Shown piece by piece: positions 1 to 51,730 of a stretch of 64,000 nucleotides of DNA. This stretch comes from Escherichia phage FL31. Under the pieces are notes generated by a model. That model saw only the letters and a list, made by a program, of their open reading frames with translations. It had not been told where the DNA came from and did not search any database. Location of the stretch: the sequence record PP400782; one strand, 5' to 3'. A program made the position numbers and the translations under genes. Positions within the stretch are counted from its first letter, which is position 1. Every line of letters starts with the position of its first letter.

Positions 1-41
1 ATGTTTCCTTTAAATGTAAATAGGTCTGAGTATTAGCTTTA

Positions 42-620
42 TTAGGAATTACGGGCTGCATTAGCAACGGCGTAAGCGTACTGAACATTAGCGTCTTTAA
101 ACGTGCCCTTAGTTGTATCTAGTTCTACCTTAAAACCGCCTTTAGCCATAACATCGGCAAATTCTTTACGGAAAGCCATTGCATCAAGACCTTTCCATGA
201 TGATTTATGCTTGGCAAATTCAAGACCTGCGAAGTTGACAGCTTTAGCTAATTTATTATCAATGACCCATTTACCTGCTTTAGGCACAAACTTCGGACCT
301 TTTTGTTTAGAGAACAGTTTTAAATTCCAGCGACGAAGGTCACTGTCGGCTTTAACAAAAGCTGCGTCTAAGTTACTAGCAACAACATCTTCAATATGAG
401 CAAATTTAAGTCCGTCAACTTCAATATTTAGATCATTACGCCAGCGTAGTCCTTCCCAAGCGAAGGCTTTAAAGTCGGAAGCCTTTGTAGCTAAGTACCG
501 TTCAATAGGAGCAGTTTTAGGGTCAAAGCCGTTTCCGCCACGATAAGTCCACTCGTCTTTATTAATGCCTTGAGCTTTTCCTGCAAAGGCCTCGGCGATA
601 AATTCTTTATATGTTTTCAT
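42..620 (-). CDS. ipIII: Internal protein III-like capsid-packaged protein with N-terminal capsid-targeting sequence (CTS)
   Basis: 192 aa; N-terminus MKTYKEFIAEA matches the T4 IP leader (MKTYQEFIAE) cleaved by gp21; size and body match T4 IPIII as recalled; ATG at 618-620. Confidence 0.7.
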   Translation of the reverse strand: MKTYKEFIAEAFAGKAQGINKDEWTYRGGNGFDPKTAPIERYLATKASDFKAFAWEGLRWRNDLNIEVDGLKFAHIEDVVASNLDAAFVKADSDLRRWNLKLFSKQKGPKFVPKAGKWVIDNKLAKAVNFAGLEFAKHKSSWKGLDAMAFRKEFADVMAKGGFKVELDTTKGTFKDANVQYAYAVANAARNS

Positions 621-645
621 TTTGTTCCTATTGATTTAATTTATG

Positions 646-960
646 TTATTCTTTAGGGAAGTTTTTAGAGTATGCGTCATAAAGTTTATTACCGATGCGA
701 CGGAAGACTTTAGCTGCAAAACGGTTTTCAGGGTTTTTAATCATGATTTGCATCATGTAAGTTCCTGCATCCGAAAGAGCTTCTTCATAGTACCCATTAA
801 TTTCTTTAAGAGTCCTACGTTTACCACCAGGACCATCAACAGTAATTTTCCATTTACCAGTAGAAGTGCGGCTCGGTGGTTCAACTTGTTCAATCCAAAT
901 ATAACCACCTTCAACGCGTTGGTTGGCGGATTCTGCAATAAATTCTTTATACGTTTTCAT
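646..960 (-). CDS. CTS-bearing internal-protein candidate (104 aa), function unknown
   Basis: N-terminus MKTYKEFIAES; ATG at 958-960; early promoter GTTTAC-N18-TATAAT and RBS AAGGAAA upstream. Confidence 0.55.
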   Translation of the reverse strand: MKTYKEFIAESANQRVEGGYIWIEQVEPPSRTSTGKWKITVDGPGGKRRTLKEINGYYEEALSDAGTYMMQIMIKNPENRFAAKVFRRIGNKLYDAYSKNFPKE

Positions 961-990
961 TTTTGTTTCCTTGTTTGTTTTGATAGAGTA

Positions 991-1020
991 ATTATACCAT
1001 ATTAATACTTAAGCGTAAAC
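991..1020 (-). promoter_or_regulatory. Early promoter GTTTAC-N18-TATAAT for the CTS-gene run 960 to 42
   Basis: Minus strand GTTTACGCTTAAGTATTAATATGGTATAAT. Confidence 0.55.
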
Positions 1021-1023
1021 AAT

Positions 1024-1284
1024 TTAAGCTTTACCGTCAGAAATAATTCCGAAGTTGTTAAAATCGTATCCAATATCGTCAACATCTACTTTAGGACTTG
1101 CTACAACATAAGCAATTTCACTACGTTTTGCATAGGTGTTGATTTCTTTACCATCGCCACCTAAGAAAGAATACCCATTACGTTTTAATGAGCCAAAGTC
1201 TTCCGCATCACCAATGAAAGCTTTAACTTTAAATTTAGGACCTTTGACATCTGTTTCAATGATAAATTCTTGATACATTTTCAT
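1024..1284 (-). CDS. CTS-bearing internal-protein candidate (86 aa), function unknown
   Basis: N-terminus MKMYQEFIIE; ATG at 1282-1284; directly downstream of denV on the minus strand. Confidence 0.55.
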   Translation of the reverse strand: MKMYQEFIIETDVKGPKFKVKAFIGDAEDFGSLKRNGYSFLGGDGKEINTYAKRSEIAYVVASPKVDVDDIGYDFNNFGIISDGKA

Positions 1285-1290
1285 TTTTCC

Positions 1291-1704
1291 TTAGTAAATT
1301 GATTTACCATAGTATTTGTACCAAGTAGGACGCTGAGCAATTTTTTCATCTAAGCGTGCTTGACTTATCGCAATGGACGCTTCGGACGGGACATAATTAT
1401 TACGAAATTCTACAGGAATATCGGAAATATCCTGGACAGTCGTGTCCTTGATTTTGAAACCACGTTTCAAACATTCGGCTATTAGCTCGATTTGACGTAA
1501 ACGTAAAAATTCGAGTTTGTCGTAAAAGAATGTTACGTGACCTGTGCCTAAGATAAATGTTGGAGAGATTTTAAAATCCTTTACACGTTTACCGTTTTGA
1601 ACATGTTTACGGACTGCACCAAATACGCGTGGTAATTCACGATACTCAGCCATAAGATGTTGGTCGGTCAGTTCAGAAACAAGTGTTAAATTGATACGGG
1701 TCAT
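1291..1704 (-). CDS. denV: Endonuclease V, pyrimidine-dimer DNA glycosylase/AP lyase
   Basis: 137 aa from internal ATG ([12 protein letters not shown]...), near-identical to T4 DenV as recalled; RBS GGAGGAAATT; ORF-track start is upstream non-ATG. Confidence 0.9.
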
Positions 1705-1709
1705 AATTT

Positions 1710-1761
1710 CCTCCAAGTAGTTGATGAATGTATAGTATCAAAGTCCTTGGAGGAAGTAAAC
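1710..1761 (-). promoter_or_regulatory. Early promoter for denV wrapped in an 8-bp inverted repeat
   Basis: GTTTAC-N18-TACTAT; arms CCTCCAAG (1710-1717) and CTTGGAGG (1746-1753) enclose the -10. Confidence 0.5.
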
Positions 1762-1762
1762 A

Positions 1763-2044
1763 CTATTTTTCTGAAGCGCCTGAAATATATTTTTCAAGAC
1801 GCTGTTTCATCAACGAGCCGTTCTTAGCGATTTCTTCCGGTTTATCGCACATACGCAACAATGCTTCAAGCTTAACGATATCACTGGTGCGCTCAAATTT
1901 GCGAGTATCTATCTTACTAGCAAGTTCAGAAATACGTGCTAATAGACTTTCGGCTTCAACCAAAGCTGCACCTAGCTTAGTTGCAAATGTGTCAGTAGCT
2001 TCGTTAAGAATAGATTCCGATAAAAATTCACTATATGTTTTCAT
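1763..2044 (-). CDS. CTS-bearing internal protein (93 aa) in the ipII/ipIII position between e and denV
   Basis: Starts [10 protein letters not shown] at ATG 2042-2044, overlapping the e stop (ATGA); track start is an upstream in-frame ATG. Confidence 0.55.
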
Positions 2045-2529
2045 ATATACGCTTTCCAAGTTCCTGTTTTAAATGTTGAGATTACGCGTTTCGCGCGATT
2101 AGGTGTCTGACGATACCATTTAGATTGGGCTAGATTTACTGCCGCTTCGTCCCAACGTTTCTGTTGAAGCATACGAAGAGAATTAGTAAAACCGGCGACG
2201 CCTGCTACACCCATTTGGAAGACCATATTGACCAATGCACAACGACGAACCGCATCTAAAAAATCATATACCGGTTTAAGTTTAGCATTACCCAAGATTC
2301 CGCGAACGGCTTTATCAACGTCTTCATTAAATAGCTTTTCAGCCTCATCAAGGGTAATTGTACCGTTGCATTTACGACCGATCATTCTGTCAAGTTCAGC
2401 TTTAGCTACGGCTAAAGACGGGTTCTTTGTTACCAAATGGCCTATGCCAATCGTCCAAAAGCCTTCAGTGTCTTTGTATAAAGTCAGTCTAAGACCTTCG
2501 TCATTACGAAGCATTTCAAATATATTCAT
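2041..2529 (-). CDS. e: Lysozyme (endolysin, glycoside hydrolase family 24)
   Basis: MNIFEMLR...GIGHL...; near-identical to T4 lysozyme as recalled; start trimmed to ATG 2527-2529 with RBS GGGAGGTA. Confidence 0.95.
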
Positions 2530-2563
2530 AATACCTCCCACGTTTATAGGAGGTATTTATTAC

Positions 2564-3022
2564 TTATAGGAGGGTAGTGAGCACCTTATATAATGATTTG
2601 CCCATTACATATTCCCATTGAGAAGGTTTAATTAAAGCGAATGCATCAAATTCAGGAATCTGTCGTCCGTCTGGGAATGTATGATAGGAATTACAAACAC
2701 TGTTTCTGAATTGCTCGTGCTCTACAGGGATGGTATATTGGAACAGATGAATATTCTTATTGTCTGAGTAATGATGTTCACCTAGGTCTTTCAGGAAGGC
2801 AGGGTCATATTGTGTAAACCCAGTTTCTTCTTCGCATTCACGAATAGCGGCTTCAATAGGAGATTCGCCAGGTTCGACACGGCCTTTAGGAATATCCCAC
2901 CGATGAGCTAAAGAACCTTTAGGACGAGAACCAGTTACACGGCCCATGAATAATTCTTTATCTTCGGTAAGGAAAATAATACCAGCTGATAGTTCTTTCA
3001 CTTTATTTTTCTTACTCATCAT
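2564..3022 (-). CDS. nudE: Nudix hydrolase NudE
   Basis: Nudix box GRVEPGESPIEAAIRECEEETG; position immediately after e as T4 e.1; ATG 3020-3022 overlaps upstream stop (ATGA). Confidence 0.85.
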   Translation of the reverse strand: MMSKKNKVKELSAGIIFLTEDKELFMGRVTGSRPKGSLAHRWDIPKGRVEPGESPIEAAIRECEEETGFTQYDPAFLKDLGEHHYSDNKNIHLFQYTIPVEHEQFRNSVCNSYHTFPDGRQIPEFDAFALIKPSQWEYVMGKSLYKVLTTLL

Positions 3023-3417
3023 CTCAAATTCCTGCATTCGGTGATAAAACGTTCAACTTCATTATTCTTGGCTTTTATCTTGTCTTTACGTTCCTGTAAA
3101 CTACTTTTAACAAGATTAATAATGATGCCTACAGTACCTCCACCAATAATACCACCAATAATACTTACGATAGTAGATGCTAATAAGATAGCGATAATAT
3201 CTAGTATAGCAAAGGCACTTACTTTAGTACTAAAAAACCACACTGACGGTACAAATATAATCCATCCTGTTATCCATTGACACTTATTGAAAAACTTTTC
3301 AAGCTCAGCTTGAGTTGTTCGTATTACTTCATCGATAGGTTGATATCCATTAATGTATCTGTTCACGATAATACCTGCTGGCTGGTTGATTTTAAATTCT
3401 TGGCAAATATGTTTCAC
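3019..3417 (-). CDS. Hypothetical membrane protein (C-terminal hydrophobic, Gly-rich segment)
   Basis: 132-aa ORF with no ATG anywhere in frame; only possible start is GTG at 3415-3417 with in-frame TAG directly upstream; weak RBS. Confidence 0.4.
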   Translation of the reverse strand: MKHICQEFKINQPAGIIVNRYINGYQPIDEVIRTTQAELEKFFNKCQWITGWIIFVPSVWFFSTKVSAFAILDIIAILLASTIVSIIGGIIGGGTVGIIINLVKSSLQERKDKIKAKNNEVERFITECRNLR

Positions 3418-9345: not shown

Positions 9346-9972
9346 TTACTTACGAGTTTTTGCATACTGAGCAGCGTCAGCAGCCAAACGACCTGCCTGA
9401 CGAAGTTTTTCTTTAATCGCATCGTGAAGTGGTTGAGTGTACTTCAAACCTTCGATAGTCAAATAAAGACGATAAAGGTCCGGGGTATCAAGGTTGTTGA
9501 TATGTTGGCCATTACGAAGAATATTGAATTCACGAACGAGTGAAGATGTATCGGATTCAATATCACGAACAAGCGAAGATAGTTGTTTATATTTTTTTTC
9601 CAGACTAGAAGTATCAAACTTAAGAGCAGGAGCTTTAGGAGTTGCTTTTACTTCAGGCTTAGGCTCAGGTTTTGCTATTGCTTTAGGGGTCGCAGGTTTA
9701 GGAATGGAAGGAGTAGGTTTTACTTTAGGCGAACCCGATTTAGCAGAAACACCACCACTAACAATATCTTTGAATGCTTTAGAAGCTCTGTAATATTCTT
9801 TTTGGCTGGAAGTGTCGATACCGTACATGGCTTGAACGTTTTTGAAAAACTCTGTACTAGTTTTTGTACCAGAAATAGCATCGTAAGCAGCTTGCCATTT
9901 CTCTTTTGTCATACGTACACCGGCTTCGGTGATTACTTCCGTTTCGGCTAAAAATTCATTAAAAGTATACAT
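9346..9972 (-). CDS. CTS-bearing capsid-packaged protein candidate (208 aa) with Pro/Lys-rich linker
   Basis: Trimmed to ATG 9970-9972 (MYTFNEFLAE...); RBS TAAGGA; minus-strand TATAAATA at 10008-10015; linker PKVKPTPSIPKPATPKAIAKPEPKPEVKATPKAP. Confidence 0.6.
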   Translation of the reverse strand: MYTFNEFLAETEVITEAGVRMTKEKWQAAYDAISGTKTSTEFFKNVQAMYGIDTSSQKEYYRASKAFKDIVSGGVSAKSGSPKVKPTPSIPKPATPKAIAKPEPKPEVKATPKAPALKFDTSSLEKKYKQLSSLVRDIESDTSSLVREFNILRNGQHINNLDTPDLYRLYLTIEGLKYTQPLHDAIKEKLRQAGRLAADAAQYAKTRK

Positions 9973-10007: not shown

Positions 10008-10015
10008 TATTTATA
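10008..10015 (-). promoter_or_regulatory. Late promoter TATAAATA upstream of CTS protein 9346-9972
   Basis: Minus strand reads TGTATAAATATAG about 36 nt before the ATG, directly after hairpin plus T-run. Confidence 0.5.
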
Positions 10016-12057: not shown

Positions 12058-12228
12058 TCATCAAGTTCGGATGTGTTAAATATAAAAAAAGTTTCGTTTG
12101 TTACCAAGCGTGATATGCGGAGTTAAGTCAATGTTATACAAATTAAGAATATCAGCAATAACCTGATTAACCGCTTTGTTAATTTTCACGCCAGACGATT
12201 CTGAGATGAATTCGTTGAAAGTTTTCAT
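12058..12228 (-). CDS. Small CTS-bearing ORF (56 aa) below ORF-track cutoff
   Basis: ATG 12226-12228; MKTFNEFISESSGVKINKAV...; early promoter TTTACA-N17-TATAGT at 12261-12289. Confidence 0.4.
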
Positions 12229-12252
12229 TTTAGGTTCCATTTGGTTGTTTTG

Positions 12253-12289
12253 ATAGGACTACTATAACATAGTCCTATCATGTTGTAAA
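12253..12289 (-). promoter_or_regulatory. Early promoter with perfect 8-bp stem-loop (ATAGGACT/AGTCCTAT)
   Basis: TTTACA-N17-TATAGT; arms at 12253-12260 and 12271-12278. Confidence 0.55.
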
Positions 12290-12601
12290 TTATTTTATGC
12301 CTTTAGAAGAAATGGTATTTTGGCGTTTGGCCCCTGTTTGTGAAAAATCGTGGTTATCGATTTGGTCAACTCTCATAACACCAAATGCGGATTTAATTTT
12401 GGCTTTTGAACCTTTTTTGATACTAATTATCATATAAGTATCATTTTTCTTATATTCGAAATTTGTTACTTCAACGCCTTGATTAGAAATTGACTTAATA
12501 ATAGCATTAGCGTATTCATCATCTAATGGACCGGTAGTGTTAATAATAAAATTTTTATCTGGTTTAGTAGCTTCAGCGATAAACTCTTGATAAGTTTTCA
12601 T
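12290..12601 (-). CDS. CTS-bearing internal protein at the ipI locus (103 aa)
   Basis: Trimmed to ATG 12599-12601 (MKTYQEFIAEATKPD...), exact T4 IP leader; sits where T4 encodes ipI. Confidence 0.6.
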   Translation of the reverse strand: MKTYQEFIAEATKPDKNFIINTTGPLDDEYANAIIKSISNQGVEVTNFEYKKNDTYMIISIKKGSKAKIKSAFGVMRVDQIDNHDFSQTGAKRQNTISSKGIK

Positions 12602-12630
12602 TTGTTTTTCCGTTTGGTTTGTGATTTGAT

Positions 12631-12666
12631 AGGATGATAGTAACACACCATCATCCTTATGTAAAC
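12631..12666 (-). promoter_or_regulatory. Early promoter with 8-bp stem-loop (AGGATGAT/ATCATCCT) for the ipI-locus CTS gene
   Basis: GTTTACA-N18-TACTAT; arms 12631-12638 and 12650-12657. Confidence 0.5.
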
Positions 12667-12679
12667 TGTTTTGTGAAAA

Positions 12680-39396: not shown

Positions 39397-40968
39397 ATGA
39401 AATTTAATATCTTAAGTTTGTTTGCTCCATGGGCAAAAATGGACGAACGTGATTACAAAGACCAAGAAAAAGAAAATTTAGAATCTATCACCGCACCAAA
39501 ATTGGACGACGGCGCTAAAGAATACGAAGTATCTGAAAATGAAGCACAGCAAACATATAATGCTATGTTTCAGAGAATGTTCGGTAGTCAAGAACCAGGG
39601 CTCAAATCAACCCGTGAATTAATCGATACGTATCGAAATTTGATGACGAACTATGAAGTGGATAATGCAGTCTCTGAAATAGTTTCTGATGCTATCGTAT
39701 ATGAAGATGATACAGAAGTCGTTTCTATAAATTTAGACAACACAAAATTTAGTCCAAATATCAAATCAATGATGTTGGATGAATTTAACGAAGTGTTAAA
39801 TCATTTATCTTTCCAACGTAAAGGTTCAGATCATTTTAGACGTTGGTATGTGGATTCTCGAATTTTCTTCCATAAAATTATTGACCCTAAACGCCCTAAA
39901 GAAGGTATTAAAGAGCTTCGTCGTTTAGACCCACGTCAAGTTCAATATGTCCGTGAAGTTATTACAACCACTGAAGCCGGTGTTAAAATAGTCAAGGGTT
40001 ATAAAGAATATTTCATTTATGACACATCACACGAATCTTATGCTTGTGATGGTCGCATATATGAAGCTGGCACAAAAATAAAAATCCCTAAAGCCGCGAT
40101 TGTTTATGCCCATTCTGGTTTAGTTGATTGTTGTGGTAAAAATATCATTGGTTATTTGCATCGGGCTATTAAGCCGGCGAACCAATTAAAACTTCTTGAA
40201 GATGCCGTCGTAATTTATCGTATTACTCGTGCTCCTGATCGTCGTGTATGGTATGTTGATACAGGTAATATGCCTTCAAGAAAAGCAGCCGAACATATGC
40301 AACATGTTATGAATACGATGAAAAACCGTATTGCATATGATGCTACTACAGGCAAGATTAAAAACCAGCAGCATATTATGTCGATGACCGAAGATTATTG
40401 GTTACAACGACGTGATGGTAAAGCAGTAACAGAAGTTGACACATTACCAGGTGCAGATAATACTGGAAATATGGAAGATGTACGTTGGTTCCGTAATGCG
40501 CTTTATATGGCTTTACGTATTCCTATTACCCGTATTCCAAGTGACCAAGGTGGTATACAGTTTGATGCTGGTACTTCTATTACACGAGATGAATTGACAT
40601 TTGGTAAATTTATTCGTGAGCTGCAACATAAATTTGAAGAGATATTTCTAGACCCGCTTAAAACTAATTTAATTCTTAAAGGAATTATTACAGAAGATGA
40701 GTGGAATGATGAAATAAATAATATTAAGATAAAATTTCATCGGGATAGTTATTTCTCGGAATTAAAGGATGCTGAGATTCTGGAGCGTCGCATTAATATG
40801 CTTCAGATGGCCGAACCATTTATTGGTAAATATATTTCTCACAGAACAGCTATGAAAGATATTCTTCAGATGTCTGACGAGGAAATTGAACAAGAGGCTA
40901 AGCAAATTGAAGAAGAGTCGAAAGAGGCTCGTTTCCAAGACCCCGACCAAGAACAAGAGGATTTTTAA
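39397..40968 (+). CDS. 20: Portal vertex protein gp20
   Basis: 523 aa; synteny 19-20-67-68-21-22-23. Confidence 0.95.
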
Positions 40969-41198
40969 TGGACGATTTAATTCAAGCTATTAAATCAAAC
41001 GACCTCGTTGCTACTCGAAAGTTTTTTGAAAGTGCAATGGCAGAAAAAACGGTTCGTTTGATTGAAGCACGCAAAGCAGAAATCGCTTCTCAATTTTTGA
41101 TTGAAGGCGAAGAACCCGAAGAAGAAGAGAAAGCTTCGGAAGACGACGCTGATGAAGGCGATGACGACGAAGACGAAGATGATGAGGACGATGAATAA
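40968..41198 (+). CDS. 67: Prohead core protein gp67
   Basis: 76 aa with poly-acidic C-terminus; TAATG overlap with gene 20. Confidence 0.8.
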
Positions 41199-41623
41199 TG
41201 TATCTTATCCCTGAATCTTATGAATTGGTACTCGAAAATGTCGAAGCACTTATTCCTGAAGCACAGGGCCGAATCGATGCATTGTCTTCTGCTCTCGATA
41301 TTGACGATATAAATACTATTATCGAGAACATGCTTGAAACTGAAACGGATTTAGCTGTTGCAATGGCTTCCATTATTAATGAAGAACAGTTAAATGAGTT
41401 TATCGTTAAACATGTTTCTTCTCGTGGTGAAGTCACTCGCACTAAAGACCGTAAAACTCGTGAACGTAACGCGTTCCAAACAACTGGTCTTTCTAAAGCA
41501 AAACGTAGACAAATCGCTCGTAAGGTCGTTAAAGCTAAAAAAGCTAACCCTTCAGGCCAAGTTAAAGGCTTGCGTAAGCGTAAAAAAGCTCTTAAACGTC
41601 GTAAAGCATTAGGATTAAGCTAA
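41198..41623 (+). CDS. 68: Prohead core protein gp68
   Basis: 141 aa with basic C-terminus; TAATG overlaps on both sides. Confidence 0.8.
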
Positions 41624-42264
41624 TGAATAAACCCGAGTTACTTATTGAAACTTGGGGTCAACCCGGTGAGATTATTGATGGCGTTCCAATGTTGGAATCT
41701 CATGATGGAAAAGATTCTGGCTTAAAACCAGGGCTTTATATAGAAGGTATTTTTCTTCAGGCAGAGGTTGTTAACCGAAATAAACGTTTATATCCTAAAC
41801 GCGTTTTGGAAAAAGCAGTAAGTGACTATATTAAAGAACAAGTCGAAACCAAACAAGCCCTTGGAGAATTAAACCATCCACCTCGTGCAAATGTTGACCC
41901 CATGCAAGCCGCTATCATTATTGAAGATATGTGGTGGAAAGGAAACGATGTATATGGACGTGCTAGAATTATTGAAGGCGACCATGGTCCCGGTGATAAA
42001 TTAGCTGCTAATATACGAGCTGGTTGGATTCCAGGTGTTTCCTCTCGTGGTCTTGGTTCTTTAACCGACACCAATAAAGGGTACCGTATCGTGAACGAAG
42101 GATTTAAATTAACCGTCGGCGTAGATGCCGTATGGGGACCTTCTGCTCCAGATGCTTGGGTTACTCCTAAACAAATATCAGAATCAGAAAATTCGGTGGA
42201 AATCACCAAAAACAGTGCTGATGAAGCATTTAAAGCTCTCGCAGAGAGTTTAAAAGCATTATAA
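41623..42264 (+). CDS. 21: Prohead core protease gp21
   Basis: 213 aa; synteny between 68 and 22; this protease cleaves the CTS leaders. Confidence 0.9.
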   Translation: MNKPELLIETWGQPGEIIDGVPMLESHDGKDSGLKPGLYIEGIFLQAEVVNRNKRLYPKRVLEKAVSDYIKEQVETKQALGELNHPPRANVDPMQAAIIIEDMWWKGNDVYGRARIIEGDHGPGDKLAANIRAGWIPGVSSRGLGSLTDTNKGYRIVNEGFKLTVGVDAVWGPSAPDAWVTPKQISESENSVEITKNSADEAFKALAESLKAL

Positions 42265-42297: not shown

Positions 42298-43110
42298 ATG
42301 ATCAAAGAACAACTTTTGAAAGAAGCTCAGAATATCGAGACTTCAGTTGCTCTTAATAGTGTTTTCGAATCAGTAGAACTGTCTCCGGACGTTAAAGCTA
42401 ATTTCAGCACTGTATTCGAAGCCACCGTTAAGCAGGAAGCAGTCAAACTAGCTGAATCTCATATCAAAGCTATCGCCGAAAAAGCCGAAGAAGAAGTTGA
42501 AAAGGCTAAAGAAGATGCTGAAGAGAAAGCTGATAAAAAATTGGCTGAACAAGCTTCTAAATTCCTGGACCATCTTGCAAAAGAATGGCTCGCAGAAAAC
42601 CAAATCGCAGTTGATAAAGGCATTAAAGCTGATTTGTTCGAATCCATGCTTGGTGGTCTGAAAGAACTGTTTGTTGAACATAACGTTGTTGTTCCAGAAG
42701 AATCTGTAGATGTTGTAGCAGAAATGGAAGAAGAGCTGGCCGAACATAAAGAAGAAACCGCTCGTTTGTTCGAAGAAGTTACCAAACGTGATGCATATAT
42801 CAATTACGTTCAGCGTGAAACCGCTATTAATGAAAGCGTGAAAGACCTGACTGAATCTCAGAAAGAAAAAGTTATTGGCCTGGTTGAAGGTATGGATTAT
42901 TCTGACGCATTTGGTACTAAGTTAACTGCTATTGTAGAAATGGTTAAAGGTTCTACTAAAGAAGAAGCCGCTATTACCGAAAGTATAAATACAGTTGACA
43001 ATGACGCTGCCGGTCTTAATTTTGTTGCCGAAGCAGTTGACACTACCACAACTCAGGTAGAACAGAATTCTAATGTAAGTTTATATGCGAAAGTCGCATC
43101 TCGTTTCTAA
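42298..43110 (+). CDS. 22: Prohead core scaffold protein gp22
   Basis: 270 aa, acidic coiled-coil-like. Confidence 0.9.
   Translation: MIKEQLLKEAQNIETSVALNSVFESVELSPDVKANFSTVFEATVKQEAVKLAESHIKAIAEKAEEEVEKAKEDAEEKADKKLAEQASKFLDHLAKEWLAENQIAVDKGIKADLFESMLGGLKELFVEHNVVVPEESVDVVAEMEEELAEHKEETARLFEEVTKRDAYINYVQRETAINESVKDLTESQKEKVIGLVEGMDYSDAFGTKLTAIVEMVKGSTKEEAAITESINTVDNDAAGLNFVAEAVDTTTTQVEQNSNVSLYAKVASRF
42984..42991 (+). promoter_or_regulatory. Late promoter TATAAATA for gene 23, inside the 3' end of gene 22
   Basis: AGTATAAATACAG about 137 nt upstream of the gp23 ATG. Confidence 0.55.
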
Positions 43111-51496: not shown

Positions 51497-51730
51497 ATGG
51501 TACTTGAATTTAAACAATTTTTATACGAAGCATCTATTGACGAATTCATGGGTAAAATTGCTAGTTGTCATACCTTAGAAGGGCTTGAAGAATTGGAAGC
51601 TTATTATAAGAAACGTATAAAAGAAACGGAATTAAAAGATACAGATGATATTTCTGTCAGGGATGCCTTAGCAGGTAAGCGTGCCGAACTTGAAGGCGAC
51701 GATGATGAGGATGTGGAAGAAGACTTCTAA
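51497..51730 (+). CDS. uvsW.1: UvsW.1 small acidic protein
   Basis: 77 aa immediately after uvsW, with acidic C-terminus. Confidence 0.7.
   Translation: MVLEFKQFLYEASIDEFMGKIASCHTLEGLEELEAYYKKRIKETELKDTDDISVRDALAGKRAELEGDDDEDVEEDF

Follow-up and report, generated by a model that had tools for sequence, protein, structure and literature searches.

Tandem genes bearing the T4 capsid targeting sequence at the polymorphic e-denV locus of Escherichia phage FL31

We have analyzed a stretch of 64,000 nucleotides from Escherichia phage FL31 (PP400782), referred to here as the window, and find that it is a genome segment of a Mosigvirus, an RB69-like T-even phage, and that its left end holds the e-denV internal-protein (IP) locus with tandem IP genes. 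An initial annotation had reported four open reading frames (ORFs) on the minus strand (42-620, 646-960, 1024-1284 and 1763-2044) that begin with the leader of the T4 internal proteins, and all four were confirmed exactly, together with the N-termini quoted for them. This leader is the T4 capsid targeting sequence (CTS). We consider it very probable that the region is an IP locus whose CTS-bearing products are packaged into the head, cut by the prohead protease gp21, injected with the DNA and directed against host defenses.

Results

The leader recurs in the window far beyond chance. A six-frame translation of the 64 kb contains its core motif, [YF]xEF[LI]xE, seven times, whereas 200 local shuffles averaged 0.125 copies and never gave more than 1. 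All seven copies are encoded by the minus strand and occupy residues 4-10 of an ORF, following an ATG. All four array ORFs possess Tyr4 and Phe7, within the sequence MK(T/M)YxEF, and all four possess Ile or Leu at residue 8 and Glu at residue 10; their leaders finish FIAE, FIAE, FIIE and FLSE, conforming to the I/L-x-E motif cleaved by gp21. In the T4 CTS, residues 4 and 7 matter for targeting and residues 8 and 10 for cleavage, and the N-terminal ten residues of IPIII are enough for a protein to be incorporated into the head (PMC9026906). When the [LI]xE rule was applied to T4 IPI, it placed the site at residue 19 of 95 and so recovered the known 76-residue product, IPI* (PMC3012670).

The shared N-termini are translated leaders and not merely a DNA motif at the 5' end of the genes. 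A ribosome-binding site (RBS) lies 5-9 nucleotides upstream of each of the four starts, and a codon-level comparison was made of 43 distinct leader-bearing gene starts from the window and the related loci that we retrieved. The wobble base of Thr3 is free among these starts (ACA 15, ACT 11, ACC 8, ACG 3), although the residue itself is conserved. Glu10 was not a criterion of selection, yet 37 of the 43 starts encode it, and the information content falls to background directly past codon 10 and likewise ahead of the RBS. Once the leaders are removed, the four bodies have no significant similarity to each other by either blastp or hhalign, bearing out the earlier view that they are unrelated.

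The bodies had also been described as unknown members of the class; this view has to be revised, as ORF 42-620 is IPIII and the remaining three fall into the Ip10, Ip5-like and RB69 ORF125c families. The body of ORF 42-620 is 92% identical to T4 IPIII over 178 residues (E 9e-127) and matches phrog_5341, 'internal virion protein' (E 1e-117). ORF 646-960 shares 96% identity with PP01 ip10 and 72% with ip10 of VR7/SP18; Ip10 is carried by 189 records and shares about 53% identity with its Karamvirus homologues. The family of ORF 1024-1284 extends by tblastn to 217 phage records, labeled either 'internal head protein' (often so in RefSeq) or hypothetical, and includes VR7 ORF127c and S16 gp70.1. 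Over 72 residues the body of ORF 1763-2044 shares 48.6% identity with T2 Ip5 (E 2e-17), and it matches phrog_3499, 'internal head protein' (E 1e-46). Its 496 phage-record matches are bimodal in identity: at 95% identity or more the gene adjoins e in about 232 records (those listed are Mosigvirus or relatives), and the matches at about 48% are Ip5 at the ipI locus of Tequatrovirus. ORF 1763-2044 represents a divergent Ip5 subfamily occupying another locus. PHROG labels of 'internal head/virion protein' apply to three of the four ORFs, RefSeq annotates most array ORFs as internal head proteins, and all four are full length relative to their own families.

The position of the array agrees with these assignments. 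Like ipIII and ipII in T4, it follows nudE and e directly on their downstream side, at one of the two polymorphic IP loci (e...vs.8 and 57B...trna.4). Transcription, on the minus strand, would pass in order through nudE, e, the 93-amino-acid ORF, denV and the ORFs of 86, 104 and 192 amino acids; the leader-bearing ORFs thus sit beside e and flank denV as first proposed, one before it and three after, with both neighbors confirmed by Pfam. DenV of the window has 90.6% amino-acid identity to T4 DenV, and vs.8 and regB lie beyond the array in relatives. The first 3.1 kb of the window matches 491 phage records, the best of which (ESh15, S143_2, phi25-307, Bas46 ChristianSchoenbein and p000v, all Mosigvirus) show 96-97% identity at full coverage, and the exact array is therefore already in GenBank several times.

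The four genes first reported stand, but the array does not end with them: at least five leader-bearing genes are present, because the ATG of an ipII-type gene stands 1 nucleotide outside the window, on its left. Read on the minus strand, window 1-45 finishes with ...TATTTACATTTAAAGGAAACAT, identical to the T4 ipII 5' untranslated region (UTR), and the genes of phi25-307 and mogra that begin precisely there encode an IPII homologue of 100 amino acids, 93% identical to T4 IPII. Further along the same locus, phi25-307 has a sixth leader-bearing gene.

Cassette shuffling, suggested earlier from the number of genes and the presence of three of them downstream of denV, is borne out by three independent lines: the positions of the families, DNA identities above those of the backbone and a chimeric leader in phage mogra. 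Across T-even genomes, the e...vs.8 interval holds from zero to six IP genes, in differing orders and at differing loci: none in Bas37, ipIII and ipII in T4 (two genes, as first stated, in the order e-ipIII-ipII-denV), ip10 and ipIV in PP01, which has no denV there, two in S16, two in CC31, ip10, ORF127c and ip7 in VR7, five in RB69 and six in phi25-307. Depending on the phage, Ip5 and Ip7 occupy either the ipI locus or the e locus. In Bas37 no IP gene lies between e and denV (L008, 4353-5323), and PP01 lacks denV at the locus (L010, 2772-4162), so that denV is itself variable in presence or place within the array.

At the DNA level, the window is 91% identical to Tequatrovirus in IPIII and 88% in Ip10, compared with 65% in nudE, 76% in e, 79% in denV, 75% in 57B and 70% in gene 1. 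The higher identity of the IP genes points to their exchange more recently than the split of the genera. The mogra locus (L002, 2120-2190, compared with window 575-1030) lacks Ip10, and the promoter and 5' UTR that stand before its IPIII gene are those of Ip10, identical to the region of window 991-1019. The leader of this gene, ATG AAA ACG TAT AAA GAA TTT ATC GCC GAG, is chimeric: it is of Ip10 type through codon 3 (window Ip10: ACG ... ATT GCA GAA) and of IPIII type from codon 8 (window IPIII: ACA ... ATC GCC GAG), and the crossover therefore took place inside the common 14 nucleotides TATAAAGAATTTAT. IP cassettes are gained and lost via recombination inside the leader, which doubles as a targeting signal and as a recombination site that keeps swaps in frame. 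The mogra leader illustrates this mechanism neatly, while leaving the overall picture unchanged.

The clearest promoter of the array is of the T4 early type and stands before Ip10; it is the best sigma-70-type match within 1-3200, with 10 of 12 positions and an extended -10. The same GTTTAC-N17 arrangement is found upstream of T4 ipIII, ipII, ipI and denV. Array genes other than Ip10 are tightly coupled to the gene upstream: the e stop codon and the ATG of the Ip5-like gene overlap (ATGA), the 86-amino-acid gene begins 6 nucleotides past the denV stop codon and the IPIII gene follows Ip10 after 25 nucleotides. Ip10, a 50-amino-acid ORF and the Ip7 homologue have in common an early-type promoter and, after it, similar 5' UTRs (CTATCAAAACAAAC...GGAA) (961-1023, 12229-12289 and 12602-12670, minus strand).

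The window also encodes the machinery with which such leaders would be recognized. Its head module comprises the portal gp20, gp67, gp68, gp21, gp22 and the major capsid protein gp23, so that a cognate prohead protease and scaffolding core belong to the same phage, and gp23 keeps the canonical LTE-AEIGG cleavage site, ending at residue 66. In T4 this machinery recognizes and removes the leader; here the genes for it lie about 40 kb from the array. Taken with the conserved CTS residues, the presence of the gp21, gp22 and gp67 genes upholds the earlier reading of the leader as a head-targeting sequence of the kind removed by gp21 in T4.

Searches of the four bodies against Pfam and the sequences of the PDB returned no family or relative of solved structure. 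A match of Ip10 to CsgH (E 0.074 in Pfam, 0.79 in the PDB) was below any threshold and was dropped. The AlphaFold model of Ip10 is confident (pLDDT 85, pTM 0.77) and predicts a leader helix followed by three strands, a long helix and two strands.

The start of the 86-amino-acid gene differs among public records (L001, 2525-2779; L002, 2184-2438; L005, 12016-12342). In RefSeq, phi25-307 and mogra begin the gene at the second ATG, giving 84 amino acids without the Met-Lys of the leader, and the Bas46 record extends it to 108 amino acids, overlapping denV; the position of the RBS favors the ATG yielding MKMYQEF as the likely start. The 86-amino-acid protein and Ip7 both match phrog_2667, and a relationship between them was considered and rejected, as their leaderless profiles are unrelated (hhalign probability 0.1%); the common match probably stems from the leader or from heterogeneity of the PHROG. 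Several public copies of the 86-amino-acid family (P0009, P0010, P0012 and P0014) are truncated, frameshifted or internally deleted, and RB69 ORF124c (L009, 5848-6120) is a shortened Ip10 of 90 amino acids. These cases suggest that individual cassettes decay often.

Beyond the array, leader-bearing ORFs are found at two further places (Table 1). The 50-amino-acid ORF and the Ip7 homologue sit at the second IP locus, the ipI locus, beside 57B; the former covers positions 1-52 of 90 in phrog_7673, 'internal head protein', and probably represents an IP gene that has been truncated. Between the tRNA genes and e.8 lies a third locus, which holds an ORF of 208 amino acids with a Pro/Lys/Ala-rich central linker and a CTS-like N-terminus lacking Lys2-Thr3. 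An exact late promoter, TATAAATA, lies approximately 35 nucleotides upstream of this ORF (approximately 10008-10015; 5' base 10015), after a GC-rich stretch that a T-run follows. In Bas46, Bas37 and RB69 the third locus carries other leader-bearing ORFs (MKTYAEFLTE) of up to 187 amino acids, and Bas46 has a second one there, of 154 amino acids (MKSYAEFLTE). The ORFs of this locus may be unannotated internal proteins.

A plus-strand ORF of 77 amino acids at 51497-51730, with the N-terminus MVLEFKQFLYE, had been taken for gp67 and was rejected, the real gp67 lying within the head module. Its position beside a helicase gene makes UvsW.1, rather than an internal protein, the most likely identity. 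We take that helicase gene to be uvsW from the gene order of T4; it is annotated as radD in phi25-307.

Table 1 Positions of the array genes, their leaders and other features in the window
Feature	Position	Strand	Basis or remark
5' UTR and RBS (AAGGAAA at 4-10) of ipII-type gene	1-41	-	likeness to T4 ipII 5' UTR
IPIII orthologue, 192 amino acids	42-620	-	homology to T4 IPIII, phrog_5341
Leader MKTYKEFIAE	591-620	-	ORF 42-620
Ip10, 104 amino acids	646-960	-	homology to deposited ip10 genes
Leader MKTYKEFIAE	931-960	-	ORF 646-960
T4 early-type promoter (TTTACG, 17-nucleotide spacer, TG-TATAAT) and conserved 5' UTR, upstream of Ip10	991-1019	-	sigma-70-type scan
RB69 ORF125c-family IP gene, 86 amino acids	1024-1284	-	tblastn family membership
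Leader MKMYQEFIIE	1255-1284	-	ORF 1024-1284
denV (pyrimidine-dimer glycosylase), non-IP gene embedded in array	1291-1704	-	Pfam Pyr_excise, E 3e-14
Ip5-like IP gene, 93 amino acids	1763-2044	-	homology to T2 Ip5, phrog_3499
Ten-residue leader ending FLSE	2015-2044	-	ORF 1763-2044
e (T4-type lysozyme), upstream anchor of array	2041-2529	-	Pfam Phage_lysozyme, E 9e-14
nudE	2564-3019	-	upstream of e in transcription order
ORF of 208 amino acids, leader-like MYTFNEFLAE	9346-9972	-	phrog_2280 (no assigned function); third locus
Leader-bearing ORF of 50 amino acids, MKTFNEFISE	12076-12228	-	phrog_7673
Ip7 homologue, 103 amino acids, leader MKTYQEFIAE	12290-12601	-	67-68% identical to T2 Ip7
gp67 scaffold	40968-41198		adjoins gp21
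gp21 prohead protease, expected leader-removing enzyme	41623-42264	+	Pfam Peptidase_S77, E 2.5e-107
gp22 scaffold	42298-43110		T4_CASP; adjoins gp21

Discussion

In T4, the internal proteins bind the scaffolding core, lose their propeptide to gp21, amount to some 1000 copies in total and are ejected with the DNA (PMC3012670; PMC5694885). By analogy, we infer that the four products described here are packaged, cleaved and injected in the same manner. The ten-residue CTS of each would bind the gp22/gp67/gp68 scaffolding core of the assembling prohead, gp21 would cut after Glu10, at the I/L-x-E motif, and the mature protein would remain in the head with the DNA and be injected with it into the next host. 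There, the mature proteins would act on arrival, before phage gene expression, as small binders that neutralize host defenses. The basic members, IPIII and Ip10, may also help to balance the charge of the DNA in the head.

An anti-defense role for the array proteins is plausible. None of the leaderless ORFs of the window matched T4 IPI or Bas37_0260 at E < 1, and as the bodies are unlike these proteins, the role therefore rests on precedent: IPI* acts against GmrSD (PMC3012670), T4 IPIII is needed to infect ECOR17 (PMC9391042), and Bas37_0260, a CTS protein, inhibits McrBC (bioRxiv 10.1101/2025.11.20.689424). A direct link of the window ORFs to this McrBC inhibitor (MZ501089, 145553-145786) was considered and rejected, the window holding no homologue of it. 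The rapid turnover of the cassettes is consistent with an anti-defense role.

It is conceivable that the proteins are packaged, yet serve mainly as counter-ions or condensation aids for the DNA, as histone-like fillers that have no specific host target. We regard this as unlikely. Mature IPIII (predicted 20.3 kDa, net charge +9, pI 9.6) and mature Ip10 (10.8 kDa, +5, pI 9.6) are basic, like T4 IPII and IPIII, and lysines of the T4 internal proteins contact DNA phosphates by solid-state nuclear magnetic resonance (PMC3012670). The mature Ip5-like protein (9.2 kDa, net charge 0, pI 6.3) and the mature 86-amino-acid product (8.2 kDa, -1, pI 5.2), however, are predicted to be neutral or acidic, so that a counter-ion role alone fits the basic members and not these two. 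Such a role would also leave the unrelated folded bodies, the fast turnover of cassettes and their exchange between genera unexplained, and host-specific phenotypes are on record for T4 IPI, T4 IPIII and Bas37_0260.

Far less probable is that the common 5' end represents only a recombination scar or a regulatory DNA motif, with some of the ORFs being untargeted or decaying remnants. The leader does serve as a recombination site, as mogra shows, and decay is evident in the damaged copies of the 86-amino-acid family, in the 90-amino-acid RB69 ORF124c and in the 50-amino-acid ORF, which amounts to half of its PHROG profile. Against this, the four window ORFs are of full length for their families, conservation is at the level of the protein, with the wobble base free and Tyr4, Phe7 and Glu10 kept, the DNA likeness ends exactly at codon 10 and does not reach upstream beyond the RBS, and ten residues of the T4 sequence are enough for packaging (PMC9026906). 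Least probable of all is that the products are early cytoplasmic effectors made after injection, with packaging unnecessary and the leader vestigial: the early-type promoter before Ip10, the lack of an exact late promoter in the array and the rescue of ECOR17 infection by CTS-less T4 IPIII expressed in the host (PMC9391042) would accord with it, but T4 ipI, ipII and ipIII share early-type promoters and their products are nonetheless packaged into the head (PMC3012670; PMC5694885), and strict targeting and cleavage residues across unrelated bodies are needless in a purely cytoplasmic protein.

Several observations weigh against an array of packaged, injected anti-defense proteins, the interpretation that we favor. 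A scan of 1-3300 found no exact late promoter (TATAAATA), the clearest promoter being of the early type, and late expression of the array genes is therefore an assumption. Our literature search found no open-access virion proteomics of a Mosigvirus or of another phage with these genes. The model of Ip10 gave no informative fold match among solved structures, and that of the 86-amino-acid protein is unusable (pLDDT 47). Finally, none of the bodies is homologous to a proven anti-defense protein, the genetic phenotype of IPIII excepted.

Repoila et al. (1994) are reported to have described two strongly polymorphic loci in T-even phages, both of them for internal proteins that share a conserved leader. 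The array described here belongs to this system. The ten-residue leader, the I/L-x-E site and the locus between e and vs.8 are those of T4 IPI, IPII and IPIII; IPIII is 92% identical between the two phages, and IPII, as seen in relatives at the window edge, 93%. T4 differs in having two genes, in the order e-ipIII-ipII-denV, whereas this phage has at least five, with denV in second position, and its Ip5-like, ORF125c-family and Ip10 genes have no T4 counterpart. Later authors (PMC3012670; PMC9026906) credit Repoila et al. (1994, EMBO J 13:4181) with the polymorphic IP loci and with the names Ip5, Ip7 and Ip10. From the polymorphic IP genes of T-even phages (Ip5, Ip7, Ip9, Ip10 and others) the present array differs in order and combination only, and that order is itself present in several deposited Mosigvirus genomes; the Ip5-like gene adjoins e here, while Ip5 elsewhere is at the ipI locus.

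Reviews describe the T-even internal proteins as a diverse anti-defense set sharing only the CTS (PMC3012670), Kuhn and Thomas (2022) likewise for T2, T4D and T6 (PMC9026906), and He et al. (2015) speak of diverse internal proteins at the ip1 locus. Our finding is thus correct but ordinary: the cassette system, the two loci and the presumed anti-defense role were already in the literature.

Two further comparisons can be drawn. Bas37_0260, at the ipI locus of phage KarlGJung, resembles the array genes in its leader (MKTYQEFIAE), its small body and its lack of a known domain, and is itself an experimentally supported anti-restriction protein. Its body, however, is unlike that of every leader ORF of the window, and the interval from e to denV in Bas37 is devoid of IP genes. 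In T4 Alt and the head proteins of SPN3US and phiKZ (cut at A/S-x-E), a related prohead protease likewise cuts off an N-terminal propeptide after Glu, and cargo and DNA are delivered together (PMC5694885). These proteins differ in the sequence and length of their propeptides, in their mostly large cargos and in the absence of exchangeable cassettes of small genes.

Internal proteins enter the cell with the DNA, before phage gene expression, and are therefore the only protein-based answer of the phage to first-response defenses such as type IV restriction. We would tentatively suggest, at somewhat less than an even chance, that Ip10, the ORF125c-family protein and the Ip5-like protein include at least one injected inhibitor of a defense not yet tied to a phage counter-measure; were this to be Ip10, it would act via a new inhibitor fold. 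A nuclease or glycosylase attacking sugar-modified hydroxymethylcytosine DNA would be an example of such a target. The three proteins form a short, well-defined list of candidate injected inhibitors for phage therapy and defense research, and the same array is carried by Bas46 (ChristianSchoenbein) of the public BASEL collection.

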